The notes under the pieces are model-generated. The model searched no databases and was not told the origin of the DNA. It was given only the letters and a program-made list of their open reading frames with translations. Both the position numbers and the translations under genes were made by a program. A stretch of 64,000 bases of DNA, taken from the NCBI RefSeq assembly GCF_028641065.1, contig NC_073392.1, positions 44,578,001 to 44,642,000 of the forward strand, read 5' to 3'. The stretch's first letter is position 1; every line of letters starts with the position of its first letter. The DNA comes from Leucoraja erinacea. Lineage: Eukaryota. Below, one piece after another: positions 22,427 to 64,000 of this stretch.

Positions 22427-23678
22427 CTAATGAGCATCCTCTTCCTCTGGGTGTCGACGTACTGGGTGGAATTTTCCAGTAGGGTCTGGAATATACCACC
22501 TATCCCAGATTTCACTGTAAGGGGAAGTGCGACCCCAGGGTTTGAACCGCCCATTCCAATGCAGCAACTTGGCAGCGTTAATAAAATGTGGTGAATATCT
22601 GGTACCGGCACTAGACCCTACAAGAGGGGAAAAAATGCATAAATAGAATGTTAATCTTTATCTGAAATATGCTGGTAGTTATATTACAGTTGAATACAGC
22701 TCTGGTGAGACTATCTGGACTACTGCATTCAGTTTTCCCCTAACGATAACTTGGATAGCAAGGTGTTTTCTTGCTTGGTTATCTTGTAAACTAGACTAAG
22801 TGGGACCTGTTGGGTCCCATGTTCACACAGGAGGGCTGGTCCCCTGACGCAATATTCCACCTCTCCACCAATTCCAATATTGGTGGCTGGGGGGGGACGG
22901 GGGGGCTTTCTGGAGCGCTGGTATGGATGTTGTTGGCTGCAGGGACTACTGGTCTCCAGAGGGCTAGCATGAATATTGTGGGCCAAATGAATTATTGGGC
23001 TCAAACCTGATGTGCTGGCAGCTCACAGCTGGTGGGCTGGCAGTTGACTCACGGCTATTCCTTGAAATTCCATTTCAAGCAAGGTGCTAGACAACCAAAT
23101 TCAAATCCATTTTCCTACCATTTCAAGCAGGGTGCAAGGCCACCAAATTCAAGTGCAGTTTCATACCACTTCATGCAGGGTGCAACAACACCACATTCAA
23201 ATGCAGTTTTGTGCTATTTCAAGCAGGGTGAAACCACACAAAACACCACACAGTTCAGTAGACATTCAGTGTGTTCATTTGATTCACAGCTCAGACAGAG
23301 TCGTGACTCTCCCTCCCCCATCATGCAGAGACTGAGCCACACCCACACTTCCAGGTTTTATAATCCCTCCCCCCTCCCAACAGAAAAGGTGTGGCCTTCA
23401 TGGCGTGATTGACAGGAGATAGATTCTCAACATTTTTTAAACACTAATAACACTTTTGTTTTTCATTGATGGGAAGAATCCTCTGCACCTGATGAGCGGA
23501 GGGGAACTGAGTAAGATGGCCAAAAATCAGAGCCATAGGTGGTAGCGTTTTATCTAAATTCAATTTAGTGCAAACAGGAAGTTGTCAAGTTTAAACAAAC
23601 AACCATTTCCAGGCAGTGCCATTTCACTTCAACACATACCCCCCAAACCACTATTTGCATGCAGTGCCTTTTCACTTC

Positions 23679-23740
<62 letters not shown>

Positions 23741-26700
23741 ACAACCATTTGCAGGCAGTGTCTTTACTTCAAACTAACCATATTTTCATTTTCAAATCAC
23801 ATTATGGGCACTCACAGTTGAGTAGACATGTGTTCAGTGTTATTCAGAGCTCGGAGAGATGTGACCCTTTGGCTTCCTACATCTTGCACAGACTGAGTGA
23901 AGCACACCACTTCCTGGTTTTATTGTCCCTCCCCCTCCCTCCAGCAGGGGCAACAGAGAGAAAGGCAGTTTAAAAAACCCCATTAATATCTCACTGATCT
24001 TTCATCGATGGGAAAAATCCTCTGATCCCGGAAGGAAGATGGGGGCTCTGAGCGAGGTTGCCAGAGCACCATTTGCAGTAAGTAGTGCCTTTCAACTTCA
24101 AGCCAAAACATCCAAGCCACCATTTGCAGTAATTAGTGCCTTTCAACTTCAAGCCAAAGCTCCCAAGCCACCATTTGCAGTAGGTAGTGCATTTCAACTT
24201 CAAGCCAAAGCACCCAAGCCACCATTTGCAGTTAGTGCCTTTCAACTTCATGCCACCATTTGCAGTAAGTAGTGCCTTTCAACTTCAAGCCAAAGCATCC
24301 AAACAACCATTTGCAGGCAGTGCCTTTTTATTTCAAACAAACCATATTTTCATTTTCAAACCACATTAAGGGTACTCACAGTTGTGTAGACATTTGTTCA
24401 GATATTCAGAGCTCAGAGAGACGTGACCCGTGGCTTCATCCATCTTGCAGAGAGTGAGTGAGGCACACCACTTCCTGGTTTTATAATCCCTCCCCCTCCC
24501 TCCAGCAGGTGCAGCAGAGAGAATGGTGATTTTTTTTTTAAACTTCAAGCCAAAGCACCCAAGCCACCATTTGCAGTAAGTAGTTCCTTTCAACCTCATG
24601 CCACCATTTTCAGTAAATAGTGCCTTTCAAGTCCAAGCAAAGCACCCAAGCGACCAATTGCAGTAATACCTTTCAACTTCAAGCCAAAGCACCCAAGCCA
24701 CCATTTGCAGTAAGTAGTGCCTTTCAACTTTAAACCAAAGCTCCCAAGCCACCATTTGCAGTAGGTAGTGCCTTTCAACTTAAAGCCAAAGCACCAAAAA
24801 CAACCATTTGTAGGCAGTGCCTTTTTACATCAAAAAAAAACATTTTCATTTTCAAACCACATTAAGGGTACTCACAGTTGTGTAGACATTTGTTCAGTCA
24901 TTCAGAGCTCAGAGAGACATGACCCTTGGCTTCATCCATCTAGCAGAGAGTGAGTGAGGCACACCACCTCCTGGTTTTATAGTCCCTCCCCCTCCCTCGA
25001 GCAGGTGCAGCAGAGAGAATGGTGATTTGTTTAAACTTCAAGCCAAAGTTCCCAAGCCACCATTTGCAGTAAGTAGTGCATTTTGAACTTTAAACCAAAG
25101 CTCCCAAGCCACCATTTGCAGTAAATAGTGCATTTCAACTTCAAGCCAAAGCACCCGAGCCACCATTTGCAGTAAGTAGTGCCTTTCAACTTCATGCCAC
25201 CATTTGCAGTAAGTAGTGCCTTTCAACTTCAAGCCAAAGCATCCAAACAACCATTTGCAGGCAGTGCCTTTTTAGTTCAAACAAACCATATTTTCATTTT
25301 CAAACCACATTAAGGGTACTCATAGTTGTGTAGACATTTGTTCAGTGTTATTCAGAGCTCAGAGAGACCTGACCCTTGGCTTCAGCCATCTTGCAGAGAG
25401 TGAGTGAGGCACACTAATTCCTGGTTTTATAGTCCCTCCCCCTCCCTTCAGCAGGGGCAGTAGAGGGAATTATTATTTTTTTTTAAACATTAATATCTCT
25501 CTAATTTGTCATCGATGGGAAAAAATTTCCGCACCCGTAAGGCGGAGGGGGGCTCTGTGCGAGGTGGCCAAAAATGACGGCCGTAGGTGACGGCGTTCTG
25601 TCGGAAATCGCAGCACAGTAGGCCAAAAGCGGTCAAGATCAGAGATTTAGTAATATAGATAGATAACAATCCAGAGCCTGCTTTCACATGGACATTTTAT
25701 TGACATCTGCCTTGATCCTTAACTGCAAGCAAGCAATCCTATATCAAATTATATAATAAAATGTCAATGTGCTGACTTACTATTACATCCTATCTGAAAA
25801 CATGTTTCTCAGACTCTTTCTATTCATAGATTTTTAGACTGAGAATAACTTGCTTCCACTACAGATTTGTGAGTTCTGGGGTGGTTAAAGAGGTCCATGT
25901 TGGAACTGCAGAAATCCACATGTGGGGTGGGTAAATAATGTGAGTTTACGCAGTTTTTAAGCCACTCGCACAGGAATTTTGTGTGCTCTGTGCATGGTCC
26001 AGATGTTAATACCATCCAGAAGCTCCACCACTTCAAATGGCTATGGGCAGATGTTCTCTGGAGCCAGCAAGGCTATACCTATTTCAAATACATTTGCAGA
26101 CTTTTTTTCCCCTGTCCATTTGCCTGTTTCAGAGTAGGGTGTTGGGCATGCAAATGATGCAGCTTGCCAAAATGTAGCAGATAGTAACTAAATGTTAATG
26201 TTGATCTTGGATTCCAAAGCATTGCTAACTGCATAAATATCATTTATATTTTTTTAGTGCCTTTAGGTGCCATTGTCGGTCTTCCAGCTTACAGAAGCGT
26301 ACTGCTTGCTGGCTGATTTCACGGGTTTTGTGCTGGATTTGAGGTCAATACCTTCAAACACCATTTTCCTTAATTGTCCAAAGGCTGTGCTTACATTGAA
26401 AGGGGTGGTGAATTTAATAGATATTTGCAGTCACAGAGGGATGGCTCTATAGATGTCAAAAGTGGTCTATGTTTTCAACGGTCTTGTGAATCCTTGTCAA
26501 TGGGAAGGATGACAGAAGACCTTGGTATTGCAAATACAGAGTGTAAAACCCATTCTCTCATATACCTCAAGTAGCAAGTCAACAATTTATTGGAGCTTGC
26601 CCTCTGCCAATGCCATTTGCCACTCCATCAGTTCTGAGGTTCCTCCATTTCCATAGAAGTTTGTTAAGGATGAGGTGCTGCATTGCGATGGGAAGAGGCC

Positions 26701-46152: not shown

Positions 46153-49100
46153 ATGATTTCCTACTTTAAATCGCTCCCTACTCACATGGTAAGAAGGAAG
46201 TGGAGGAGGAGAAATACTCGAGGCTCAGGCTGTGGCCTGTGGATAGGACGGGGCGGCCTGGCCTCGAGTGAGGGAAACTTCTGACTTTCTGTGTATAGCG
46301 ATTAGCAAACGGCTAGTATTAGTATTATCTCTCAAATACAAGGGGAAAAACGATAGGGGAAAGGCCGTCGGGTCTAGGTTTGAAGAAGGGTCTCGACCCG
46401 AAACGTCACCCATTCCCTTTCTCCAAAGATGCTGCCCGTCCCGTTGAGTTACTCCAGAATTTTGCGTCTATCTTGGGTTTGGGTTTGTTGCATTCGTCTG
46501 CACCGTAAACACCCTGCCCTCATCCCCACAATATGGTGCGATTGAACCATATTCGCGTCAATTGACAGCGTTTTCTCTCTTAAACCAACCCAGTGAACGT
46601 GCAGCTCACTCCAACACCATAAGGCCGCCCAGAGAGCCATTCCAGTCGATCACGGGAGATTTGCACCTTGGAGAAGCCCCTTCTCTTCGAAGATACATTT
46701 GGAAGGAAAGTTAGACAGGGAAGGGGAAGCAAATCAAATAGGCTCAGAAGGTGCTCGATGCGGAGTATAAACCCTGCCGTGGACATGCCGATTTTGTGCT
46801 GCATATATTTGTTTAAATACAGGATGCCGGCCTCTTTGTAGTTTTCAAGTCAGCTCGGAACATACAGATCAAAAATCGGGGTCGACATCTTCTACAACCG
46901 TTAATGACGCTGAGAGAGAGGTGTTTGTTGTATTGTAACGTAAACTGAATAGAACCGTGTTGTCATAGGCAGAGTGTGTTTGGGTTGGTGGAGAGTCAGT
47001 GATGGTGGCGGCGCAGCTAATGTGAACTGAGCAGAATGAAGCTCTCACTTTCTGTGTATGAGGATTAGAAAACGGACCACGATATATCTCATGCAAGGGG
47101 AACACGATGGAGATAGAACATCAGGTTTCGGTTTGTCGCATTAGTTTGCAGCGTAAAAATCTGACCCTTATCCCCACAATATTGAATATGGTGTGAGTGA
47201 ACCATACTCGCGGTATTGACGATATTTTCTCTTTAAATCAATCCAGTCGCCTCGGATGACTGCAGATAGGAATTGATTACATTTTTATCTGTGTCCAATT
47301 ACCCTTGATAATGTTATAATTTAAATATATTTGCTTTACATCAAAAATGTTCATATCGATTAATAATTACAGATGGAAATAGCCTGCCTAATCTTGTACT
47401 TTATCTCTCATCATCAAACTGTGAACAGTTTTGGCCTTCACTTACTGACAGCTGCCCCTTAAAACTAAGTGAAGTATAGTTAAAATTATGTTGACGTTTT
47501 TTTTTTTTAATGCAGTGTTTTTGTAAGTAATGGAAACATTGCATTGCAGTATAATGAAAAGTAAGCTTAAAGCTGAAAAAATTACACTTAACAGCATATT
47601 TCAAAATCAAAAAGTTGAGACATTTTATTTCCATGGATCTGCTTATAATAAGCTGACAAGTGTAGATTTTGAATTAGAAAATTAGATAAATCTACTTCAA
47701 CTGGGAAAGTGGACCAAGAAATAGCAGATGGAATTGAACTTGGAAAATATTCATTTTGTTATGTATTTAGTTAGGCCAGGAATTGCACAGTAAATGACAG
47801 GGCTCTGGAGAGTGTTTTAGAACAAAGGGTATAACTACATAGTTACTTAAAAGTGGTGAAGGTGACATTTGACACGTTTGCCTTTATTGAATACAATAGT
47901 TGGGATGTTATTTTACTGCTATCTAAAATATTGGTGAGACCACATTGTGAGAGTATTGTGTGTAGTTCTGGTTGCTCGACTATAGGAAGAATATCATTAA
48001 GCTTGAAAGGGTGCAGAAAAAGTTTATGAGGATGTAACTGGGACTTGGAGACTTGAGTTATAAGGAGAGACTGAATAAGCTGGAGTATTTTTCCCTGGGG
48101 TATGGTACAGAGGGGTGGGGGGCTTGAATACATTCAGAGATGAATGTCAGCCTTTTTCTCAGGTTTTGGAAATATAAAACCAGAGAATATAGATTTAAGG
48201 TGAAATGTAAAATATTTAAAGGAAACCCAGTGTGCAACTTTTTAACATGGTGCGTGTGGAATTATCTGCCAGAGGAAGTTGTAGAGGCGGGTACAATTAC
48301 ACCGTTTAAAAAGCATTTGGACAGGTGCATGGATAGGAAATGTTTAGAAGGATGGGGACCAAATGCAGATAAACAGGACTACTTTCTTAGTTGGCATGGA
48401 TGAGTTGCGATTGCTTGAAGCAGACTTATTATTGTCATATATACAGAAGTATGTTAGAAAGCTTTTTCGCAACTTTTGAATTGGCATCCAAACAGCAACA
48501 CATTTTCACAAGATATTGTTCCCATTCATATCACTGGATGGTAAGCCGCATCATGAGATGCCAAGATCTGGAGCAAAATAACATTTTTTTTCCCAGAGGT
48601 CAGAGCATTCATGTAGAAGACATATAACCATATAACAATTACAGCAGGGAAACAGGCCATCTCGGTCCTACAAGTCCGTGCCGACACAACTTTTTTTCCC
48701 TTAGTCCCACCTGCCTGCACTCATTCCATAACCCTCCATTCCCTTCTCATCCATATGCCTATCCAATTTATTTTTAAATGATACCAACGAACCTGCCTCC
48801 ACCACTTCCACTGGAAGCTCATTCCACACCGCTACCACTCTCCGAGTAAAGAAGTTTCCCCCTCGTGTTACCCCTAAACTTCTGTCCCTTAATTCTGAAG
48901 TCGTGTCCTCTTGTTTGAATCTTCCCTATTCTCAAAGGGAAAAGCTTGTCCACATCAACTTTGTCTATCCCTCTCATCATTTTAAAGACCTCTATCAAGT
49001 CCCCCCCCCCTTAACCTTCTGTGCTCCAGAGAATAAAGACCTAACTTATTCAACCTATCTGTAACTTAGTTGTTGAAACCCAGGCAACATTCTAGTAAAT

Positions 49101-52100
49101 CTCCTCTGTACTCTCTCTATTTTGTTGACATCCTTCCTATAATTGGGCGACCAAAATTTTACACCATACTCCAGATTTGGTCTCACCAATGCCTTGTACA
49201 ATTTTAACATTACATCCCAGCTTCTATACTCAATGCTCTGATTTATAAAGGCTAGCATACCAAAAGCTTTCTTTACCACCGTATCTATATGAGATTCCAC
49301 CTTCAAGGAACTATGCACGGTTATTCCCAGATTCCTCTGTTCAAATGTATTCTTCAATTCCCTATCTGAAGAAAGGTCCCTGTTTTCCCAGGCGAACATC
49401 ACCATGCTCAACATACATTGCTGGTTTCCCTGAGTGGTTATATCATTCATATCTAAACTCCAAACCAATCATTTAACTCTGAGCTCTGTCACGGCAAGAG
49501 ATTACAAGAGAATGGAGGAAATGCATAAACATTGTTTTGGAGGTTTTGTGGAGAAAAAATATATAATCTTTGCAGACTGGGAATTGCAGCTGTACAAAAC
49601 TTTGTTTAGGCCAGATCTGGAATATCGCGTATGGTACACACTGCATTACAAATACGTGAAGGCCTTGGAGAGGATTATAGAATATTAGCGATAAGGAGAG
49701 ACTGGACAAACTTGGGTTCTTTTCTATAGAGCGTTGGCGACTGAGATGCGATTTGATAGAAATGTATAAAATGATGAGAATCTCAGATGTACTCGGGTTT
49801 TTTCCCCAGTCTGAAAATAACAAGTGCCGGAGGACATAAAAGGACCCAAAGTGCTGGAATAACTGTCGGGCAGCATCTCTAGAGAGACCATGGATAGCTG
49901 ACATTTTAGGTGGAGACCCTTCTCCAGACTGATTGCAGGGGGGAGGGGGAGAAGAAAGCTGGAAAAGGGGAGGCAGGTCAAAGCGTGGTAAGTGATGTCG
50001 ACATAGACAAGGGGGGGGGGGGGGGTTGGATAGGCAGATGGAAAGATGGAAGAAAGGCCAGATATAAGAACAGAAGGTGTGAATTAGAGGGCATAGCTAT
50101 AAGATGATTGGGGTTTTTTTTTAACATGGAGTATGGTACGTGCCTGGAACTGCTACCAATGGAGGTGATGGAAGCTGATACAATAGCAACATTGTGGCAC
50201 CTCGACAGGTACATAGATAAATTACAGATCACATGGAGGCAGATAGGATTAGTTTATATTTCTGGACCTGAAACTTTACTTATTCCGTTTCTCTAGAGAT
50301 GCTGCCTGACCTGCTGAGTTACTCCAGTTTTTTGTGTCTTATCTTCTTTTCTTTTGGTGAGCTAAATCCTTAGTTCAGAGAAAGCTGAGGGGAAACCTGA
50401 TTGATGTATACAGAATTATGAAAATCTTGGATGAGATGGATAGTGAGAAGCTTTCCCCCTTAGCAGAGGTATCAACAACCAGAAGACCTGGATTTAAAAT
50501 CCAGATTTGGACATTTTAAATGGGATTTGTAGATTTTTTTATATTTTTGTCACGCAATGGTTGATTGCAATCTGTAATGTTCTGCTCAAGGTGGTGGTGG
50601 AAGCATGCATGCCCTTAACATTCAAATACAATGTAAATTAGCACTTAACTCCATTACATGGAAGAATATAGGCTGATAACTGTAACATGAAAGTAATATA
50701 GATTGACATTTGATAGGCTGTTGGGTCTCTACCATTGCTTTGTGATTCTAACTCTGAAGGTTTGCAGTAGTCATTGTTGAAATTAATGTAAATGTGGTAA
50801 AGTCTCAAGTAGCAGTAAGATAAAGATTGGAATCTGTTTCTCAACATGGCATGGGAATAAATACTGATCAGTGTGTAGTTGCTGTTGAAATAATAAAGTT
50901 CAAAAAGTTAATTTTAATTTAGAACTAGACTAAGTGGGACCCATTGGGTCCAGTCACACGGGAGGCATGGTCCCCCAATGCAACCCATTCCCCAATGCCA
51001 CCACTCGCCTGTTTCCCCCAATGCAACGGCGGGTGTGTTCTGTAGCCGGGGGACAGCTTCAGACGGGAAACTTCCTGCGGCCAGGGGAGGCGGTTGGCTT
51101 CAAGGGGGCTGGTGGGTGGGTGTGTGTGTGGGATGGGAGGGGGCGCGCTTGGGGGGAGGGGAGGGGGTGCGTGCTCACCAGGCCCCGGCTCTGCTTCAAC
51201 CGCACTCCTGGCTCCAGGACCTGGCTCTGGACTCACACAGCTGCTCCCGTCCCCAGCGCCTGTCGCGCTCAAAGCTCCCGCCCCGCCCGCGGAACAGAGC
51301 CCACACTGCTTCAGCTTTATTCTCGACGGGCTCACAGACTCTGCCCCGCCTCTGGGGTTTTATTCTTCAGCGGGTGCCAGAAGGGACGTTACCTTCATGG
51401 TGACTGGCGGGCGCGAAGACCAATCTGCTGATTTAAAAAAAAAAAAACTTCATAACTTTTGTAATCTTCCACCTATCGGAACAAAACTTGGTGGCTTGGA
51501 GCAGAGGAGAATGGTGAGGTGGCGAGTAATTCTAGCGATTATAGGGTAGTGTTTTTACGCTCATTTAAATACAATGCAGACTGGAAGTGGTCAAGATGAG
51601 ATATTAATAATTGTATATATGTGACTATTCATCGATTTTTGTCTCTGTTAAACTGCACTGCCAAGGGAGCAAGAACAGAAGAATTATTATAAATGCAACC
51701 ATTGATTGTCATGGCTTACAGGTGCTCCTCAACATACGATGGGGTTATGTTCCGATAAATCCATTGTAAATTGAAAATATAATAAATTGAAAATGCATTT
51801 AATACACCTAACCTTTAGTGGCCGCCCGCATTGTCTGGTGGTGGCCAAGAGAGGTTCCTGTCTTCAGATATTTACTTGAAACAGATTTTTTTTTAATTAA
51901 TTTTTTTAAAAGCACAGGTGTCCAGCGAAAGCGGTTGCCACAAGTTTATATTTAATAGCAGCGACTGTGCCTATCCGTGTTGTACGTAGTCGATGCCAGA
52001 GCTCCACTGTCTGCACAAGTTGTTCTGGATGTATCAATGTTACAAAATTTTGAGATTTAAAAAATCAAGTCTAATTTATCCCATCAGATAAAGCATAAAA

Positions 52101-53310: not shown

Positions 53311-54168
53311 ATTTACACGCATACAATCCATGGTGAGCAATAATGAACAAGCCCAGCATCACGAGAGTAGCGTACCGTATTTCACTAGCCCGGGAAAAGA
53401 TCAAAATTCAAAGTACGGTTTCTATTGAATGTATATTGCTTTTGCACCATCGTAAAGTTGAAATATCATAAGTCGAAGAGCATCTGTATTCATCGTTGAA
53501 CCTACTATAACTGTTTAACTTGCAGGACTATAAGGGACAACAGTTAGCAGAACAAACATTTCAACGAGTAATTATCGCATCTGCTGTAAGTATATTAATT
53601 TTTTTTAAAGATTATCTTGAATTTTGAGTTGGAATTACAGTATTCATTTTCTTTAATAGATTATTGGCTTCATTTATGGTTACATAATTGAGCAGTTTGG
53701 ATGGACTGTTTACATAGTTCTGGCTGGTTTTGCCATTTCATGCTTGGTAAGTTAAATACATTTTCTCATAGTAATTAGTATGCTTGTTGCAATTTGACTT
53801 TAAAAAATTATCATTTTTGTTTATTAACAAAGTGATTTGGTTGGAAAAAAGCTGCAAAAATCAACTTTTTATGGTCTCTTCGCATTTAGTAAAAAATATT
53901 GTTTTTTTGTGTGTGTGTCTCATTGGTAAGAAGTACTTACAATTATTTATGTTCAGCTTTATATTTTAATGAAATCACGTGTTGATTTGGCTAACTATTC
54001 GGTGCAACAGTTGGTATTTTTGTTAGTTAACTCTAGTCCTTTACTTTTCAGCTAACTCTCCCTCCGTGGCCTATGTATCGTAGTCATCCATTGAATTGGC
54101 AGCCAGCAATAGAGCCAGAGGAGAAAAAGCAAACTGAGTGTGCCAAGAAACCTAAAAAGCATAAATAA
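46153..54168 (+). CDS. SPCS1: Signal peptidase complex subunit 1, 99 aa, 4 exons
   Basis: Exons 46153-46188, 53526-53585, 53660-53746, 54052-54168: [12 protein letters not shown]|[20 protein letters not shown]|[29 protein letters not shown]|[22 protein letters not shown]. Confidence 0.96.
46377..46474 (+). mobile_element. Penelope-derived repeat with hammerhead motif (SPCS1 intron 1)
   Basis: ggt-TTGAAGA-AGGGTCTCGACCC-GAAACGTC-acc. Confidence 0.6.
48622..49362 (-). mobile_element. CR1 LINE 3' fragment; shorter copies of this end at about 31420-31560, 43795-44000, 55875-56170
   Basis: Same subfamily as 33963-35680. Confidence 0.88.
50925..51620 (-). mobile_element. Non-autonomous Helitron
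   Basis: Hairpin GGACCC-AAT-GGGTCC plus CTAG|T; 5' end resembles that of the 22791-25663 element. Confidence 0.7.
51719..53486. mobile_element. Tigger-type non-autonomous transposon with a nested element (about 52030-53000) and (TA)n at 53271-53306
   Basis: TA|CAGGTGCTCCTCAACATACGAT...ATCATAAGTCGAAGAGCATCTG|TA. Confidence 0.7.
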
Positions 54169-54216: not shown

Positions 54217-54717
54217 GTTTGCTGAATTGGAATGTACTTTGATAAGTTGGTTAATTGGTGATTATTCTAGAGCAGATGTCATCAATGCTATGACAAGAGA
54301 AAAACATTTTATGCATTAAATATTTTATTCCTGAAACACAAGTTTGGGGAGAAAATTGAATTTGAAGTCCACTGTCACACGATAAGAAGACATGGAATGT
54401 ATTCAAAGCAGAGATCAAAATGCATTTGAATTAAGGACATTCAGGAGTATGTGGAAAGTGCTGATCTTGCTCAGTGACGGCACAAGCTCAGTTGGCTTAC
54501 TCCTCTGTGTTGAAGCTGTATGAGAATACAATCAATCTTGTGCATGATGGGCAGCAATCCCAGACATCCTGGGTGGTGGGAAAAATACAATTCCTCTCAT
54601 TTGAGAGGTTAACCTATTATTATTATTGCGGAATTGAATACACTATTTCACTCTTGATCCTAAAAACACATAAATGCATATTGCTGCTGAGGTATGTGTG
54701 TAAAATTTAGGAAACAA

Positions 54718-56553
54718 CTAGACCAAGTGCAGACCTGTTGGGTCTGTTTCCCCAACGCGCGTTTGCAGGGGAGGGAGGAGCTGCGGCATCACACTCACAC
54801 TAACCACCCCTCAAACACACAGGGGCGGAGGGGGGGGAGACGGGGTGGGGAGAGGGGAGGAGGAAATGGGAGAGATTTGGGAGGGAGAGCAGTGCGGGGA
54901 TGGGGAGGTTGGCGAGGGCAGGAAGGGAGGGAGCGGGGTGGGAGAGGGGTAGCGGGGAGTGCGGGAAGAGGTGCAAGAGAGAGGGGAAGGGGGGGGGGAG
55001 GGGAAGAGAGAGGGTGGAGGAGGGAGGTGGAGGGGGTGGGGAGGGAGATGGGTGGGGGGAGATAGAGTTGAAGAATGGGGAGGGAGGGGGAGAGGTGTAG
55101 AGTGTGTGAAGTGGGAGAGAGGTAGAGGGAGTGGTGGAAGGGGTGGCGGGGAGAGGGGAAGAGGGTGGGGGGAGGGGAGAGAGGGGAGGGGGGAGGGAAG
55201 GGAGGGGAGAGGGGTAGGGGTGGGAAGGAGGAGGGAGAGGGGGAGGGAAGGGGGGAGAGGAAGGAGGAGGGACGGGAGGGGGGTAGGGGGAGTGGTGGGA
55301 GAGGGGTAAGGGAGAGGAAGAGTGGGGAAGGGGTAGGGGGGGGGAGAGGGGAGTGGTGGGGGGGGATGGGGGGAGGAGGGTGGGGGGGAGGGAGGGGGAG
55401 AGAGGGGTGCAATAGAGGGAGGAGGGGATGGAAGAGGGAAGGGGGGGGTAGGGGGCAAAAGGGTGGAGGGAGGAGGCGTGGGGAGGGGTAGAGAGGGGGG
55501 AAGAAGGGAGATGGGGAGGGGGGAGGGGAGGGAGGGGGAGGAGAGGGAGGGGGTGGGGTGTGGGGGGGCGGGGGAAGGAGATGGGGTGGGGGGGAAAGAA
55601 GGGAGAAGGAGTGGAAGAATGGGGAGGAGGGAGGGGTAGGGTGGAGGGAGAGGGGAGAGGGAATGGGGAGGGGGGGAGAGGAGGGGTGGGAGAGGGAGGG
55701 GGAGAGGTGGGGGGGAGGGAAGGGGTGGGGGAGGGAGGGGGAGAGGGGGGGGGGGGAGAGAGGGGAAATAGTGGGGAAGGAGAGTGGAAGGGGAGGGGTA
55801 GGGACAGGTCCAGGGGTGGGAGGGGGCGATCACCCCCCAATCCTCTTTCTCTATTCCCACACAAGTGATGACACATATAACCATATAACAATTACAGCAC
55901 GGAAACAGGCCATCTCGGCCCTACAAGTCCGTGCCGAACAAATTTTTTTCCCCTTAGTCCCACCTGCCTGCACTCGACCATAACCCTCCATTCCCTTCTC
56001 ATCCATATGCCTATCCAATTTATTTTTAAATGATACCAATGAACCTGCCTCCCCCACTTCCACTGGGAGCTCATTCCCCACACCGCTACCACTCTCTGGG
56101 AGAAAAAGAAGTTCCCCCTTCATATTACCCCTAAACTTCTGTCCCTTAATTCTGAAGTCATGTCCTCTTCGTGGCTGCGGGGGTGGGGGCTGGGGCTGGT
56201 GCAAAGGCATATTTACATGGATCCATTCCGATTGGACATCTGTGAGCATTGGGCATTGTGACATCACACGACGGAACGTTGCATTGTGACATCACACGGT
56301 TGAACGTTCACCAACATGTTATGGCTGAGAGCTGTTTTATTTTTTAATTTTTGGGGGGGAGGGGAGAAGGATTTTATTTAAAAATGTGTACATAAACACG
56401 ACGAAATTTAATCAGGAGTGGATACTTGGAATGGAAAGTGAAATCTCTATCGAAATGGAAAAAATCTCGGCGATTCTGTGTCTGGTGTCGGCGTAGTAAG
56501 GAATCAAAGGCTGGCAGCCACAAGTCAGGCAGCCACAGAGTTTTAAATATAGA
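54718..56553 (-). mobile_element. Helitron unit 1 (G/A-rich tract, nested CR1 end)
   Basis: CTAG 54718-54721 with CAGACC/GGTCTG hairpin; 5' TCTATATTTAAAA at 56553. Confidence 0.75.
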
Positions 56554-57405
56554 TTAGACCAAGTACAGACCCGTTGGGTCTATTTCCCCACAACGGCGTT
56601 TGCGGGGGGGGGGGGGGGCGGGGGGGGGCTGCGCTATCACACTCGCATTAACCACCCCCAAAACACAACAGGGGGGGGGGAGAAGAGGCGAGGGAGGGGA
56701 GAGGAGGAGGAGGAAACGGGACAGATTGGGAAAGGGAAAGGAGAGAGGGGGGTAGGGGGGGACAGAGAGGGGGATAGGGAGAGAGATGTGGGGGGGGGGG
56801 GGGTGAGGGAGGGGAGGGAGGGAGGGAGAGAGGGGTGGGGGAGAGGGGAAAGAGGGGGACGGAGAGTGGAGGGGAAGGGGGGAGGGGAATGGAAGAGTGG
56901 GTATGGGAGAGGGGTAGGGGGAGTGGAGGGGAAGGGGGAGAAAAAAAGGAGGAGTGGGTAGGGGGATAGGGGGGGCGGGGGAGAGGGAAGGGGGTGGGTA
57001 GTAGAGAGTGAAGAGGGGTGGGGGAGAGAGGGATGGGTGTGGAGAGGGAGAGGGAAACAGAAACATAAGATTATAAGATCCCCCCTCAATCTTCTAAATT
57101 CTAACGAGTACAAACCAAGTCTTTCTTCATATGAAAGTCCTGACATCCCAGGAATCAGTCTGGTTAACCTTCTCTGTACTCCCTCTATGGCAAGAATGTC
57201 TTTGGGCATTGGGCATTGTGACATCACACGATGGAACGTCCACCATGGGCTGGGGCTGGTGCAAAGGCATATGTAAATGGGTTCATTCCGATTGGACATC
57301 TGTGAGCATTGGGCATTGTGACATCACACGATGGAATGAATCAAAAGGCAGAAAGGCAGCCGGACGGATGCCGGACGGCGGCAGCCACAGACTTTTAATA
57401 TATAA
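56554..57405 (-). mobile_element. Helitron unit 2
   Basis: 3' CTAA with AGACCC/GGGTCT hairpin; 5' TTATATATTAAAAGTCTGTGGCTGCC; CR1 piece at about 57063-57205. Confidence 0.72.
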
Positions 57406-57985
57406 CTAGACCAAGTGCAGCGTTGGGTCTGTTTCCCCAACGCGCGTTTGCGGGGGGGGGGGGGGGGGTTACGTCGTCACACTAACCACCTGGGTCTATT
57501 GGGTCTGTTCCTCCAAAGCATGGTTGCGGGGTGGGTATCTGGCACCCACAAACACACGCTCATCACACCCCTTGATATTATCTTAATTTTATTGATTGGC
57601 TTCTTTTATCCCATCTCCACCCTATCCACTGACGAATAGCCCTCACCTCTCAGATGCCTCTAGAGGTGGGGGGGTCAGAGAGAGTGTGCACAGACAGAGT
57701 GGAAGAGAGAGAGAGAGAGAGAGAGGGCAGAGAAAAAGATAAAGATCAAAGAGAGCGAGAGAGCAGAGAGCGGCTGACAGGCGCTGCGTGGAAAAGTGAT
57801 TTATTAAATCAAAATGGAAATAACTTAAAATACAACAATTTAAATGGTAAAGATAAAATTTATTCAGTTATGTTCATTTTCGTTGTGTCTCTTGCTCCAT
57901 GTTTTGTGTTCTTTCTCGTTGATCCTCGAGACATTGTTTCTCTTGTCACGGCTGTTCATTACTTTTGTCTTGAATTCCTTTTTTT

Positions 57986-60746
57986 GGAGAATTTGGTAAT
58001 CATGGGGGACTTCAATTTTCATATTAATTGGGCAAACCAAACTGGGCAGGGTAGACTAGAGGAAGAGTTTATAGAATGTATTAGAGACGGGTTCCTAGAA
58101 CAGTATGTCACAGAACCGACAAGGGGGGAGGCAATCTTGGATCTGGTCCTGTGTAATGAAGCAGGATTAATTAAAAATGTCATAGTTAGGGACTCGTTGG
58201 GAACAAGTGACCACAATATGGTCGAATTCCATATTCAAATAGAAGGGGAGCAGGTTGAAACCCAGGCTAGGGTGCTTAGTCTAAATAAGGGGGATTATGA
58301 AGGTATGAGGACTGAGCTGATCAAAGTTGACTGGGATAGCAGACTCAAGAATAAGACGGTACATGAGCAGTGGTGTACGTTTAAGGGTATACTGTATAAC
58401 CTTCAAGAAAAATTTATTCCTATGAAGAAAAAAAGGGGTAAGGGTAAGAACAGTCAGCCATGGCTCAGTAAAACTATAAAGGATAGTATTCGGCTGAAGG
58501 CAAGGGCATATAAGGTAGCCAGAGATAGTGGGAGGGTAGAGGATTGGGAAGCATTTAAAGGTCAGCAAAAAATAACTAAGAGATTAATTAAGACGGGGAA
58601 AATAGACTATGAAAGGAATTTAGCGAACAACATAAAAACTAATAGTAAGAGTTTTTATAGCTATATAAAAAGAAAAAGGGTGGCTAAGGTGAACGTTGGT
58701 CCATTGGAGGGTGAGACTGGAGAGTTGTGGGTGGGGAACATGGAAATGGCAAAGGCATTAAACGAGTATTTTGTATCAGTCTTCACCATAGAAGACACAA
58801 AAAATATTCCAACGCTGGATAAACAGGGGGCGGTAGGAATGGAGGAGCTAAATACTATTAAGATCACCAAGGAGGTGGTATTAGGGAAATTAATGAGACT
58901 GAAGGAGGATAAATCCCCTGGGCCTGGTGGATTAACATCCAAGGGGCTTGAGGGAGAAAGCGGTGGGGATTGTGGATGCATTGGTGATAATTTTCCAAAA
59001 CTCCCTGGAGGCAGGAACGGTCCCAGTGGATTGGAAAATGGCCCATGTAACACCTATATTCAAAAAAGGAAGTAAACAGAAGGCGGGTAACTATAGACCG
59101 GTTAGTCTAACATCGGTGGTAGGGGTGGGTAAAATGTTAGAGACAATTATTAAAGAAACAATAACGGGGCACTTGGATAAACATGACTTCATCGGACAGA
59201 ACCAGCATGGTTTTGTGAAGGGGAAGTCCTGTTTAACGAATCTGCTCGAATTCTTTGAGGAAGTAACAACCCGGGTGGATAAAGGGGAACCGGTGGATGT
59301 GGTATACTTGGACTTCCAAAAGGCTTTTGACAAGGTGCCACATAAGAGACTATTGCTAAAAAATAAAAAAATTATGGGATTGGGGGTAATATATTAGCAT
59401 GGGTAGAGGATTGGCTAACAAATAGGAAGCAGAGAGAGTGGGGATAAATGGTTCATACTCGGGATGGCAACCGGTAACTAGCGGGGGTTCCGCAAAGGGT
59501 CGGTGCTGGGACGCCAGTTGTTCACAATTTATATAAATGATTTGGAGGAGGGAACCAAGTGTAATATATCAAAATTTGCGGACGATACAAAAATGGGAGG
59601 AAAAGTAGGGGATGAGGAGGATAGGAAGAGTCTGCAAAAGGATATAGATAAGCTAGGTGAGTGGGCAACAACTTGGCAGATGAAATTTAATACTAATAAA
59701 TGTGAAGTCATTCACTTTGGGAAGAAAAATGATAGGGCAAGTTATTTTCTAAATGAGGAGGAGCTGCGTTGTAATGCAACGCAAAGGGATCTAGGGGTAT
59801 TAGTACATGAATCACTGAAAGTTAGTATGCAGGTGCAGCAAGCAATCAGGAAGGCCAATGGAGTTTTGGCCTTTATTGCTAGGGGGATTGAGTATAAAAA
59901 CACGGAGGTCTTGCTGCAGCTGTACACAGTATTAGTGAGACCACATTTGGAATACTGTGTACAGTTCTGGGGTCCATACTTAAGAAAGGATGTACTAGCC
60001 CTGGAGGCAGTGCAGCGAAGGTTTACAAGATTAATTCCTGCAATGAGGGGATTGACATATGAGGAAAGGTTAAGTAGGCTGGAACTCTACTCTTTGGAGT
60101 TTAGAAGAATGAGAGGCGATCTCATTGAAACATATAAGATCGTGAGGGGCCTTGATCGGGGTGGATGCACACCGAGGATGTTCCCAATGATCGGGGAAAC
60201 TAGAACTAGGGGACATAGTTGCAGAATAAGGGGGGGCTCTTTTAAAACTGAGATGAGGAAGAACTTCTTCACCCAGAGGGTGGTTAATTTATGGAATTCA
60301 CTGCCCCAGGGAGCAGTGGAAGCAGAAACTTTAAATATATTTAAGACTAAAATAGATGTTTTTTTAGCTGCTAAGGGGATAAGGGGCTACGGGGAGAGGG
60401 CAGGGATATGGACCTAGGTATGGTTAGTATAGTAAGACCTGAGTGATCTCCTGGACAAGTGTCGATCGCCTGGATTGGGGTCGGAGAGGAATTTCCCGGA
60501 TTTTTTTTCCCGAATTGGACCTGGGTTTTTATCCGGTTTGTTGCCTCCCCCAGGAGATCACGAGGTTCTTGGGGTGGAGAGGGGTGATAGCGGTATAAAG
60601 GGGAGGGTAGTGTCTTGTGTTCTGTGTCTTGTGTCTACTGTTTGTGGGTAAGTGTGTCTGTTTAGTGTTCAGCCATGAGCGAATGGCGGTGCGGGCTCGA
60701 CGGACCTGGTGGTCTACTCTCGCACCTACTTTCTGTGATTCTGTGA
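57986..60746 (+). mobile_element. CR1 LINE ORF2 (part of APE plus RT), frameshifted
   Basis: MGDFN, LDLVL, SDHN, NYRPVSLTS, QHGF, KFADDTK, 3' UTR and tail. Confidence 0.93.
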
Positions 60747-60993
60747 GACATTTCTAACGTTATTTCTTGTTGCGTCTTCGTTCCTTTTATGAAGCCAATA
60801 ACATGAATAAAAAGGACAATTTTATCTTTTGTAGATATTTATAAACTTCTATAAACATTGTACTACCGTGTACCGATCTGGCTGTTTTTTGGCAACTTCC
60901 TCTCGTCTCTTGTGCCGTTCTGCTCATTACTGCTTCTCAATGTTGCTTTGTGTTGTTCCTTGAACATCCAGCAACTCGATTGCTCCCATCTCT

Positions 60994-61655
60994 TTGCAAG
61001 AAGGCTCATCAGCGTCTCTTCTTCCTGAGGAGACTGAAGAAGGTCCATACCGCTGCACCATCGAGAGCATCCTTACCAACTGCATCACAGTATGGTATGG
61101 CAACTGCTCTGTCTCCGACCGGAAGGCATTGCAGAGGGTGGTGAAAATTGCCCAACGCATCACCGGTTCCACGCTCCCCTCCATTGAGTCTGTCCAAAGC
61201 AAGCGCTGTCTGCAGAGGGCGCTCAGCATCGCCAAGGACTGCTCTCACCCCAACCATGGACTGTTTACCCTCCTACCATCCGGGAGGCGCTACAGTGTCC
61301 CAAACTCGGGAACCAGGCTCCGTGTGCCGACCAGCTCGGTGCCTCAGGAATTTACAAACAAGATCTTTCAAAGGGAGATATGTATTCGGGCGGCGGCTGT
61401 CACCACCTATACTAAAACAACCCACCTCGGTGACCCCCCCATATTCACCACCCCCCCCCCCCCCCCACAACCCCCCCCCCCCCCCCCCCCCCACCCCCCC
61501 CCCCCCCCCCCCCCCCCCCGGACACTTATTATTTTTTTTTTATTCAAATCGTTTGCTATGTCGCTCTTCAAGGGAGATGCTAAAATGCATTTCGTTGTCT
61601 CTGTACTGTACACTGACAATGACAATTAAAATTGAATCTGAATCTGAATCTGAAT
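60994..61655 (+). mobile_element. Rex1-like LINE 3' fragment
   Basis: YRCTIESILTNCITVWYGN..LLPSGRRY; (ctgaat)n tail. Confidence 0.8.
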
Positions 61656-63021
61656 GATGTGAAAAAAAAGAGAAAGATATTTATCACGATGTAGATATTC
61701 ATAAACTTGTAAAGGTAATTTCATCTATTGTAGACAATTATAAACTTCTAAAGACAATTATTTATATAAATGCATTTACCTATAATTTAAAAAAAACATT
61801 ACACAATTATGTACCATTTTGTCTGTATTTTGGAAGCTTATTGTTGTGTTTCGTTCCATGCAAACTTGCATTAATTTTTGAAGATCCTCAAGAGGTTCAG
61901 TCCTTTCTTGTTCTGTCTCTTGTTCACTTCTGCTCCATACTGTTTCTCAACATCTCTTTACAGTGTCCATTGACCATCCTACAACTTGTTTGCTCCTGCT
62001 TCTGGGCATGAATTTAAAAAAAGGAGATATTTATTACAATGTAGATATTTATAAAATTCCATCTGTCAATCCATCAACATACAAATAAAAAAGAGATTTT
62101 GTATCGTATACCAATTTCGGTGTTTTCTATCAATTTCTTGTTGTGTTGCTTGTTCCCTACTGTCCTTCATTTATTTCTCGCAGATCCCAAAGACGTTCAG
62201 TCTAAATATCTCGGATCCAGAAATGAGGCGACAATGACAGCTTGAGACAAAAAGGCAGCATTTGAATGGTATTAGGGCATTCTGATAAAACTAAAGTAAA
62301 TTTGTATCAAGGATAAAAAAAAACAATGCACGGGTCCCAAATAATTTCAAATACTGACCTTTCATCCATCTTAAGATCTGAAGTTGATTTTCACTGATGG
62401 TTACAGAATTTTCAATTCCATGCAACTCCTGAGAAAATGCAGTCAATCCTTACAAACAAAATAACTCAACAATAGACCAAAGTGGAAAGTAACACTCATG
62501 TCAAACAACAGAAAAGGTAACAATAATTTCTTACAAGGCAGAAATTAACCACATAACCTTGATACGCAATGCCATTACCAACACCAAATTCTCAAACATC
62601 AATATCTCGGCAACCATCATTTACTCAATAATTGACTCAACAATTGAACTGTACCTGATACATATACCCTAGATGTGCAAGCCTGTGGTTTTATATCTTG
62701 CAGCAAATAATCCATCTGCAAGCTTTATCATGAAGCATGAGAACAGCTCCAGCAACTTTCTATCCAAAAATCAAATGCAACTGGCAAGATTTTACATGTC
62801 ACTTAATGTGTCCTTGAAGCTTTTTCTGAGGCAGCATTTTAAACTTTTGTGTGCAGAAATGTGATTCCTGTGTTAAACATCCCTTGTTGAACTGAGGAGC
62901 AATAATCAAAAGTGTCGAAACTCTGGACATTCGGTTCCTTCCTGCATCGCTTGTTGCCATCAGTTTTGCGTTCTTTCATTGACTTGAGGAAAATTTGAGC
63001 ACTTAATGCAGCAGTCATTTC

Positions 63022-63440
63022 TCAACAAAGCATTTGTTTAATTACAACATTCCTGGTTGATGTCCCATCCTTCAGGAACACTTTTACTTGTTCCTTCACC
63101 TTTCCTCTGCTAAGAGCTACATATAGTTGGCCATGTTGAAATACTGGTTTCTCAAGGTATATCAAGACCTTCTCCATGGTTTGTTCTTGTGCCTTATGAA
63201 TTGTCATTGCAAAACTCGACAGAATAGGGAATTGGCTCCGCCTAATGGGAATGTTTTCATCTTCTGACAAATTGATCTTCATCCTAGGAATGAGAACAAT
63301 CTCTTCTTTGTAGGCCCCCCCCATGTTGATTCTGGCAACAATGAGATTATTGTGTAGCTGTTCTACAATCAACCTCGTTCCATTGCATAGCTTTGGGGGT
63401 TGCAAGTTTCTGATTTAAAACAATTGGAGATCCTTTCTTC
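63022..63440 (-). pseudogene. Helitron RepHel Pif1-family helicase C-terminal fragment
   Basis: KLCNGTRL..IPR..RRSQFP..FAMTIHKAQEQT..VFQHGQLYVALSR..TRNVV. Confidence 0.88.
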
Positions 63441-64000
63441 TAGTGGGGAGGGAGTGGTGGAAGAGGGACAGAGGGGTAGGGGGAAGGGGGCGGGGAAGAG
63501 AGTGAGAGAGGGAAGGGGGTAGGGTAGAGAGGGATGGGGGGTGGGGGAGAGAGGAATGGGTGGGAGAGGGAGAGGGTTGAGGAGAGGGAAACAGAAATTA
63601 AGTGCAGGAGTAGGAATCAAAGGAAGAAAGTCAGCTGGCAGCCGGACGGACGGTGCCGGATCTATCTCGTCAATGGAAGAAAGATGCTGGAAATGGTGTA
63701 AATTATACTTGGCCTTTGATCTTGTAAAGCCTGACTGGAACAAGATACAAATGAGCAGACCTCTCAAATTTGCTTGCACAGAGAAATTCCATTTTATTAT
63801 CTGTTGCTGCGTAACAGCATACAAGCTCTGATATTAACTGCTGCATCTACAACAGACCAATCGCGGAGCGGAAATCAAAACTGCAGACAATGGAAATTTG
63901 AAATAAATATAGAAACTGGATACACACAGAGATCAGGCAGCAGTTGCAAAGAAAGACCTGAATTAATGTTGCAGGTTAAAGTCAAGTTTTTTTAATTCTG

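Follow-up and report, generated by a model that had tools for sequence, protein, structure and literature searches.

Three unlike Helitron-family units lie end to end downstream of SPCS1 in the skate Leucoraja erinacea

Abutting Helitrons of unlike sequence are already published for maize and bats, and so is an explanation for them. In the report on the maize r1 locus (Du et al. 2008, PMC2267711), a CTAG end is directly followed by the 5' end of the next element, the two elements are unlike in sequence, and consecutive insertion was favoured, a host-A|T(5' end) site being named as one route. Helibat elements of Myotis also show abutting ends with a matching explanation (Grabundzija et al. 2016, PMC4778049). 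Helraiser is established to insert between A and T without duplication; it favours AT-rich DNA 3' of the incoming element, and its transposase cleaves exactly ahead of the 5'-TC (PMC4778049). In maize helA, according to Dong et al. (2011, PMC3288121), family termini stand in a row with the inner 3' ends damaged and the outer one intact, and these multiple termini were attributed to elements having landed inside or close to other Helitrons. For tandem arrays of bats, in turn, the published interpretation is a concatemer (Pritham and Feschotte 2007, as cited in PMC2267711). No paper on a Helitron in Leucoraja erinacea was found in a search that left most subscription journals and the repeat databases outside.

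The window analysed here, a 64-kb stretch of 64,000 nucleotides, holds three Helitron-family units on the - strand, end to end, downstream of SPCS1, and this array is real as sequence. Its composition differs from that of the systems above. The r1 pair (PMC2267711) consists of two large gene-carrying elements of a plant whose presence was PCR-tested across maize lines, whereas the skate array, in a cartilaginous fish, comprises three units that are small, lack autonomy and contain LINE pieces, and is known from sequence alone. Helibat and Helraiser belong to another family than the skate elements (PMC4778049), and the bat arrays repeat like units, while those of the skate are unlike. The helA composites transposed again (PMC3288121), but amplification of the skate array is not evident. 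The features of the locus are as follows.

53526-53585, 53660-53746 and 54052-54168 (span 53526..54168), + strand: last three coding exons of SPCS1, context outside the array
54705..54717, - strand: host 3' flank, first base the target T, 10/13 A/T
54718..56553, - strand: unit 1, non-autonomous canonical Helitron of 1836 bp, 5'-TCTATATTTAAAA, ending in CTAG and then host T
54730-54746, - strand: unit 1 hairpin, intact, 6-bp stem
54830..55800, + strand: unit 1 G/A-rich low-complexity tract, 91% purine
55873..56169, - strand: 3' fragment of an abundant LINE in unit 1, presumably CR1-like, 87-97% identical to six other copies in the window
56187..56276, - strand: unit 1 internal block of 90 bp with the GCATTGTGACATCACACG repeat, 94% identical to 57247-57336 of unit 2
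56553..56554, - strand: junction 1, CTAA|TC, zero host bases between, also read as CTAA|TCTATATT
56554..57405, - strand: unit 2, non-autonomous Helitron of 852 bp, 5'-TTATATATTAAAAG, without TC, 3' end CTAA
56567-56581, - strand: unit 2 hairpin, 6-bp stem
56680-57060: unit 2 shorter G/A-rich tract
57072..57203, - strand: internal LINE fragment without tail in unit 2, which we take to be CR1-like
57405..57406, - strand: junction 2, CTAG|TT, also read as CTAG|TTATATATT
57406..63660, - strand: unit 3, 5'-truncated Helitron deletion derivative, 3' CTAG, hairpin broken
57499..57535, - strand: 3' subterminal motif of unit 3 repeated in incomplete form, 81% identical to 57423-57459
57992..60746, + strand: nested LINE ORF2 (endonuclease and reverse transcriptase) in unit 3, 5'-truncated and frameshifted, assumed to be CR1-like, edges set by eye
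61003..61655, + strand: nested LINE 3' fragment with TGAATC tail in unit 3, PF09004 match, taken by us as Rex1/Babar-like, edges set by eye
63022..63414, - strand: C-terminal 130 codons and stop of a RepHel helicase, in unit 3
63450-63600: shorter G/A-rich tract in the unit 3 region

Both junctions read on the - strand as the initial annotation had given them, GGTCTAA|TCTATATTTAAAAC at 56554|56553 and GGTCTAG|TTATATATTAAAAG at 57406|57405. Each is one change off the ideal CTAG|TC (CTAA|TC and CTAG|TT), and junction 2 is exact within one base, the first dinucleotide of unit 2 being altered or one base lost. As sequence the junctions are not due to chance: with both strands counted, only four out of 127,972 positions match either 5'-end 14-mer with at most two mismatches, and two of these are the unit 5' ends, each directly behind a family 3' end. 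The outer end of the array, 54718|54717 on the - strand, reads CTAG|T, and a T directly follows all six family 3' ends in the window (6/6). A sister element, solo A, starts A|TC; A also precedes the unit-1-type end in one contig of run X3, and in the array itself the truncation of unit 3 hides the 5' host base.

The family 3' end has the pattern hairpin plus CTTGGTCTAG. A hairpin followed by CTRR, expected of a canonical Helitron (HLE1) and initially ascribed to every unit, was found in units 1 and 2 (6-bp stems; CTAG and CTAA, respectively), while unit 3 keeps CTAG and has 3 nt of the stem deleted; at the position of this deletion, additional letters are present in contigs of three of the four runs. 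Similarly, a TC start was found in unit 1, but unit 2 begins with TT and the 5' end of unit 3 is gone. Homology in unit 3 begins at about 63660, in a subterminal TCCGGC motif, the first ~30 nt being missing, so that 63665, formerly set as the array end, does not mark a genuine terminus. We also discarded the A|TC at 63661/63660 as a terminus, because it aligns about 30 nt inside the 5' end of unit 2. With its two nested LINE pieces subtracted, unit 3 is about 2.85 kb long. The window scan for hairpin plus CTRR gave 20 rows, five at family ends (one duplicating 50925) and 15 unrelated, and passed over unit 3 and solo B, both of which were recovered by motif. The first 5'-end pattern scan gave no match, and a degenerate 3'-end pattern had 0 matches in metagenome contigs.

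Identification as Helitrons was strengthened by the RepHel fragment, which the initial annotation had overlooked and which links the array to a RepHel transposase, as expected for HLE1. Of its 130 residues, 128 (98%) are identical to residues 1100-1228 of the Leucoraja erinacea RepHel LOC129716088 (P0001). The last residues are the same; of the 1228 residues of P0001, no more than the final 130 are present in the window, with one residue inserted and one changed. PIF1 (PF05970), Helitron_like_N (PF14214) and Rep-type (PF23343) Pfam domains were found in P0001, and the best PDB match was Helraiser (PDB 7LCC). No Rep domain was detected in the 64-kb window, and among the three units only unit 3 contains helicase sequence. 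Terminal inverted repeats belong to the definition of Helentron/Helitron2 (HLE2) elements in PMC11417382. When the first 60 and last 80 nt of each unit were compared, no short terminal inverted repeats appeared, the longest perfect inverted match being 4-6 nt in the three units. Neither was an endonuclease domain found behind the helicase, another Helentron trait: the frame stops ~25 residues past the last helicase motif, as it does in P0001-P0003, and no endonuclease Pfam domain follows the helicase in P0001 or P0002. HLE2 membership was rejected on the lack of both traits.

Judged by their sequences, the three units are different variants of the family and not copies of one donor. Outside low-complexity DNA, mutual alignment covers 1-19% of each unit, while the unit ends are 82-94% identical (44/51, 46/49 and 42/51 in pairwise comparison of the 3' ends). 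The similarity is a mosaic in which units 1 and 3 are closest at the 3' end, units 2 and 3 at the 5' end and units 1 and 2 in the interior. The GCATTGTGACATCACACG repeat was correctly described as common to the latter two, with four copies on the + strand of the window, two per unit. The cargo does differ among units, as had been noticed, but consists largely of LINE pieces, and the tracts described as purine-only are 89-91% purine. Contigs of four sequencing runs (of 24 listed) were aligned to 56315-57660 at 88% likeness, taking the best 15 of 52 joints, 32 of 83,646 pieces and 40 of 56 substitution rows, with the CR1 piece dominant. This comparison skipped the repeats around 56594-56848 and had the array flanks outside the stretch compared; depth in it does not equal copy number, and none of the runs is known to be the sequenced individual (best share 0.83). 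The family was abundant in the four runs, and every run (4/4) contained numerous further copies of the interior of unit 1 and likewise of the interior of unit 2, which indicates that both units are pre-existing variants. The CR1-like fragment of unit 2 is likely cargo of a multi-copy subfamily.

The explanation that we favour, with somewhat better than even confidence, is that the elements inserted successively at the A|T that arises where a host A meets the first T of the resident. Each unit would have been mobilised in trans by a P0001-type RepHel, and joining of the incoming CTAG end to the first T of the resident would leave no seam and keep both elements on one strand. Unit 1 would have arrived first, followed by unit 2 and then unit 3, with the LINE insertions, the hairpin deletion and the 5' loss of unit 3 mostly later. 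An exact fusion without host DNA is not decisive between mechanisms, because insertion at host-A|T(resident first base) gives an identical junction (PMC2267711). The A|T at a resident 5' end is a very AT-rich target, of the type that Helraiser favours: A and T account for 12/13 bases behind junction 1 and for 13/13 behind junction 2, and only 515 of 10,008 AT sites (5%) reach 12 A/T in the following 13 bases. In the X3 contig, the unit 1 5' end, exactly at 56553, stands behind an A within the family's own internal repeat, at a point where the window's next base is T. This single contig, with a 26-nt side, independently supports the terminus as well as the A|T rule and insertion of the family into itself. 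Insertion into the family's own TA-rich 5' end, one of the two origins first suggested, fits all the anatomy and is a likely rather than a proven origin. A rough estimate, based on an assumed 2.5 Gb and on the element density of the window, predicts 0.004-0.014 triples per genome if AT sites are used uniformly and 0.4-1.4 if only the AT-richest tenth is used. As a random triple is so improbable, some insertion bias is needed, and composition alone may be insufficient.

The relative ages point weakly in the direction predicted by successive insertion. The helicase piece of unit 3 is 2/130 residues off the full-length protein, and the majority of run X1 differs from the window at 9 positions for unit 1 (~210 bp compared), at 8 for unit 2 (202 bp) and at 4 for unit 3 (255 bp), by a hand count on 40 of 56 substitution rows in which majorities are possibly of other subfamilies; together these give a weak hint that unit 3 is younger. 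Neither an empty site nor an intermediate allele, with unit 1 by itself or with units 1+2, was seen in the contigs, which covered 56315-57660 only. Junction 2, at one base from the ideal, speaks against successive insertion, as does the damage to both inner 3' ends beside an intact outer one, which fits a composite moved whole too.

A more tentative proposal, which we hold possible but doubtful, is that resident 5' ends of the family serve as active docking sites for its newcomers: a RepHel that has bound a chromosomal 5'-TC and nicks there would accept the incoming CTAG end. Docking would be an intermolecular version of the circle-closing reaction. Were it true, polar mixed arrays growing at one end would record the order of subfamily activity, and such arrays would be far commoner than AT-richness explains.

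It is unlikely that two or three units were first combined into a composite at another locus and then came here as one piece by end-bypass. In that case the transposase would have begun at the outer 5' end and passed over the damaged inner terminators, ending at the intact end of unit 1. Damage is present at both inner 3' ends (the hairpin deletion at one, CTAA at the other), whereas stem and CTAG are kept by unit 1 and the three sister elements. This is in line with maize, where 99/100 inner 3' termini lack an intact CTAG (PMC3288121), and with the rise of Helraiser read-through on hairpin loss (PMC4778049). Nevertheless, two of two damaged ends are unremarkable at ~5% divergence. In three of the four runs, a single contig per run connects a 3' subterminal stretch of the family with ...GGTCTA and a unit-1-type 5' end, which looks like a whole-hairpin deletion, but the depth of this joint is 6-22 against thousands for the family, its side measures 26 nt and unknown letters lie between. 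Amplification of junction 1 or 2 is nowhere evident, and an abutting insertion is still required to build the composite.

Rather less probable is the integration, in one event, of a mixed multimer made of circles of different subfamilies fused at CTAG|TC junctions. Helraiser circles have precise end junctions and are precisely cleaved there, which makes them a ready target (PMC5876387, in part), and unlike units with exact joins would result; however, no mixed multimer is reported in that part of the paper, and equal ages are predicted, against the hint that unit 3 is younger. The other origin first suggested, concatemer formation, would here mean a rolling-circle concatemer of one donor that later decayed into three unlike units; this is largely refuted as far as alignment can tell, and we regard it as very improbable. 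One strand, exact joins, common subterminal motifs and the 94% identity of a 90-bp block would agree with it, and tandem arrays of bats and plants have been so read (PMC5876387, same part). Against it, mutual alignment of 1-19% beside ends 82-94% identical makes it unlikely, the similarity is a mosaic, the unit-specific interiors are multi-copy elsewhere and helicase is confined to unit 3. Least credible is that high-copy, G-rich repeats were wrongly assembled here. The long G and C runs near the array and the lack of a piece bridging junction 1 or 2 among the 32 of 83,646 listed could be quoted for such an error, but a mis-join is expected within a shared repeat and not twice at a terminal base, the junctions carry private changes, and the bridging blank is uninformative with few pieces listed, records filtered and the repeats around 56594-56848 skipped.

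As a single locus, the array carries little weight; it does warn against taking a seamless CTAG|TC join as evidence for rolling-circle concatemers. Should counting across the genome reveal strong self-targeting, skates would be good for studying Helitron target choice and composite origin, because the family is recently active and very abundant. The array itself is most likely without function and, as its outermost 5' end is gone, dead as a whole.

The identity of SPCS1 was corroborated by Pfam SPC12 matches on three exons; exon 1 was not recognised in 46500-47140. From the stop codon (54166-54168) to the array start there are 550 bp. The stop and two polyadenylation-like hexamers (54211 and 54315) precede the array, and nothing suggests an effect on SPCS1. 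All four Helitron loci of the window lie on the - strand, which is not significant (p = 0.125). Finally, TCTATATTTA occurs near 63913, inside an old repeat, and by eye is a chance match.

Three 3' ends of a single Helitron family, with closely related subterminal sequences, were found on the minus strand at 54718, 56554 and 57406, and the array which they define starts 550 bp past the stop of SPCS1, a gene whose identity was confirmed by SPC12 matches on three exons. The units and their joins (a slash marks each join) are the following.

Units and junctions of the array
54718-56553, minus strand, unit 1, carrying a 297-bp LINE 3' fragment
56554-57405, minus strand, unit 2, carrying a 132-bp internal LINE fragment
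57406 to about 63660, minus strand, unit 3, carrying a 2.75-kb endonuclease-RT LINE piece and a 0.65-kb tailed LINE piece
56554/56553, minus strand, junction 1: GGTCTAA/TCTATATTTAAAAC, inner 3' end and then family 5' end, nothing between
57406/57405, minus strand, junction 2: GGTCTAG/TTATATATTAAAAG, inner 3' end and then family 5' end, nothing between

Both junctions read exactly as the initial annotation had described them, and sequences with at most 2 mismatches to either 5'-end 14-mer occurred at only 4 of 127,972 window positions, 2 of them being the junction ends themselves; the abutment is therefore beyond a chance sequence match. No junction-bridging contig piece was present, for either junction, among the 32 listed of 83,646 pieces, and neither an empty nor a partial site was seen. 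The description of each unit as ending in a hairpin plus CTRR holds for units 1 and 2, which fold a 6-bp terminal hairpin, but the stem of unit 3 is short by three bases, and extra letters were seen there in contigs of other copies from three of the four sequencing runs. Unit 3 does not run to 63665 as proposed: it lacks the terminal 5' sequence, and its start near 63660 falls within the subterminal TCCGGC motif, some 30 nt inside the equivalent of unit 2, whose first bases are TT. The tracts reported as purine-only were 89-91% purine.

An open frame of 130 codons (63025-63414) in unit 3 had the Helraiser transposase as its best solved relative (E 1e-24), and 128 of its 130 positions match the last 129 residues of a 1228-residue Leucoraja erinacea RepHel, the Helitron transposase. 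Because of this match the units can be firmly assigned to Helitrons, and the species of the matching protein suggests a skate as host; further RepHel parts were not found in the window. Since neither terminal inverted repeats in the units nor an endonuclease past the helicase in the unit 3 frame were detected, the units would be classified as canonical HLE1 elements by the definitions in the relevant part of PMC11417382. Physella acuta (snail) RepHel proteins, at 67-69%, are nearly as close to the helicase piece as a Rhinoraja longicauda (skate) one, at 71%, most other matches being near 50%; this is a lead for horizontal transfer, or may just reflect separate families.

The cargo of the units differs, as had been noted, but much of it is LINE DNA, in pieces which we take to be CR1 and Rex1/Babar. 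Two contigs of run X15, with 6 and 10 differences, cross the edge of the LINE fragment of unit 2 by 18 and 27 letters (threshold 31), which weakly suggests that this fragment is cargo of a multi-copy subfamily. The noncoding part of unit 3 (60800-62200) contains degenerate internal repeats of 40-80 bp with 73-85% identity, broken up by the LINE piece at 61003-61655.

The array is a genuine pile-up, ordinary to uncommon, of three different non-autonomous canonical Helitrons, and we favour with moderate confidence the view that it was built by consecutive insertion at the resident 5' end. A Helitron lying between host A and T, with T as its own first base, forms with the host A a new A/T target, and insertion at this target gives a seamless same-strand CTAG/TC join; the predicted order of insertion is unit 1, then 2, then 3. 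This route is named in a passage of Du et al. (2008; PMC2267711) for two unlike adjacent maize elements, where consecutive insertion is favoured, and abutting insertion is listed among the sources of new ends in bats in a section of Grabundzija et al. (2016; PMC4778049), which also shows that Helraiser favours AT-rich DNA 3' of the incoming element and cuts just before its own 5'-TC. Insertion at the family's own TA-rich 5' end had been proposed initially and fits the anatomy. Directly past junctions 1 and 2, 12/13 and 13/13 bases are A or T, a level found at 515 of the 10,008 AT sites of the window. In one contig of run X3 a unit-1-type 5' end, terminating exactly at 56553, lies behind an A in the internal repeat of the family, the next base being T (26-letter side). 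The helicase piece of unit 3 departs from the L. erinacea RepHel at 2 of its 130 residues, and comparison of the window with the majority of run X1 gives 9 differences over about 210 bp for unit 1, 8 over 202 bp for unit 2 and 4 over 255 bp for unit 3 (counted by hand, 40 of 56 rows listed). These divergences agree, as a weak hint, with the order 1, 2, 3 that we infer.

By a rough estimate assuming a 2.5 Gb genome and 4-6 elements per 64 kb, a genome would carry 31-70 doubles but only 0.004-0.014 triples under uniform use of AT sites, and 312-703 doubles with 0.4-1.4 triples if a tenth of these sites alone were used. Doubles are ordinary; to account for a triple, one has to invoke bias, true self-targeting or luck over the many windows scanned.

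A less likely alternative is that a composite was moved by read-through past damaged inner ends: the two inner 3' ends carry damage and the outer end does not, a pattern shared with the maize multi-terminus elements described in part of PMC3288121. A further head-to-tail-like joint, from 56562 to 57427, appeared in one contig in each of three of the four runs (three organisms; depth 6-22; unknown letters between) and looks like a 3' end without its hairpin joined to a unit-1-type 5' end, the hairpin having been removed at a 2-base microhomology. It suggests that head-to-tail joins recur and is possibly a second such locus common to skates; however, it does not show junctions 1 and 2 amplified. 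Systematic docking of the family on its own 5' ends, the boldest reading of the array, appears rather unlikely. Finally, a rolling-circle concatemer of one donor, also proposed initially, predicts like units and is therefore not supported, the units being unlike: outside low-complexity DNA only 1-19% of each aligns to another, similarity is mosaic (closest at the 3' end for units 1 and 3, at the 5' end for 2 and 3 and in the interior for 1 and 2), and in each of the four runs many further copies cover the interiors specific to units 1 and 2. Identity over the last ~50 bases of the units was 44/51, 46/49 and 42/51.

Three Helitrons of a sister subfamily, with 3' ends at 16715, 22791 and 50925, all CTAG/T and apparently solo, share with the array units only the pattern of the last ~30 bases.

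Sister-subfamily Helitrons of the window
16715-16865, minus strand, 5'-truncated 150-bp 3' end of a Helitron, lying within a CR1-like LINE
22791-25659, minus strand, apparently complete solo Helitron; A/TCTATATTACTAAA start, 7-bp hairpin, CTAG/T end
50925-51620, minus strand, solo Helitron, likely intronic, upstream of the SPCS1 exons found; 5' boundary uncertain

A passage of PMC5876387 cites tandem arrays of Helitrons in plants and bats, part of PMC5148889 discusses for Fusarium, too, how composite Helitrons may arise by self-insertion, and a section of PMC4224331 reports one composite bat element in support of end-bypass. The host 3' flank of the 50925-51620 element, TTCTAAATTAAAA, has A or T at 12 of 13 bases and resembles the family 5' end, hinting that targets may mimic the left end. 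The LINE around 16715-16865 seems to have lost ~20 bases on the 5' side, by eye against other window copies, and nested tandem repetition, at periods of ~51 and 450-500 bp, makes up the interior of the 22791-25659 element.
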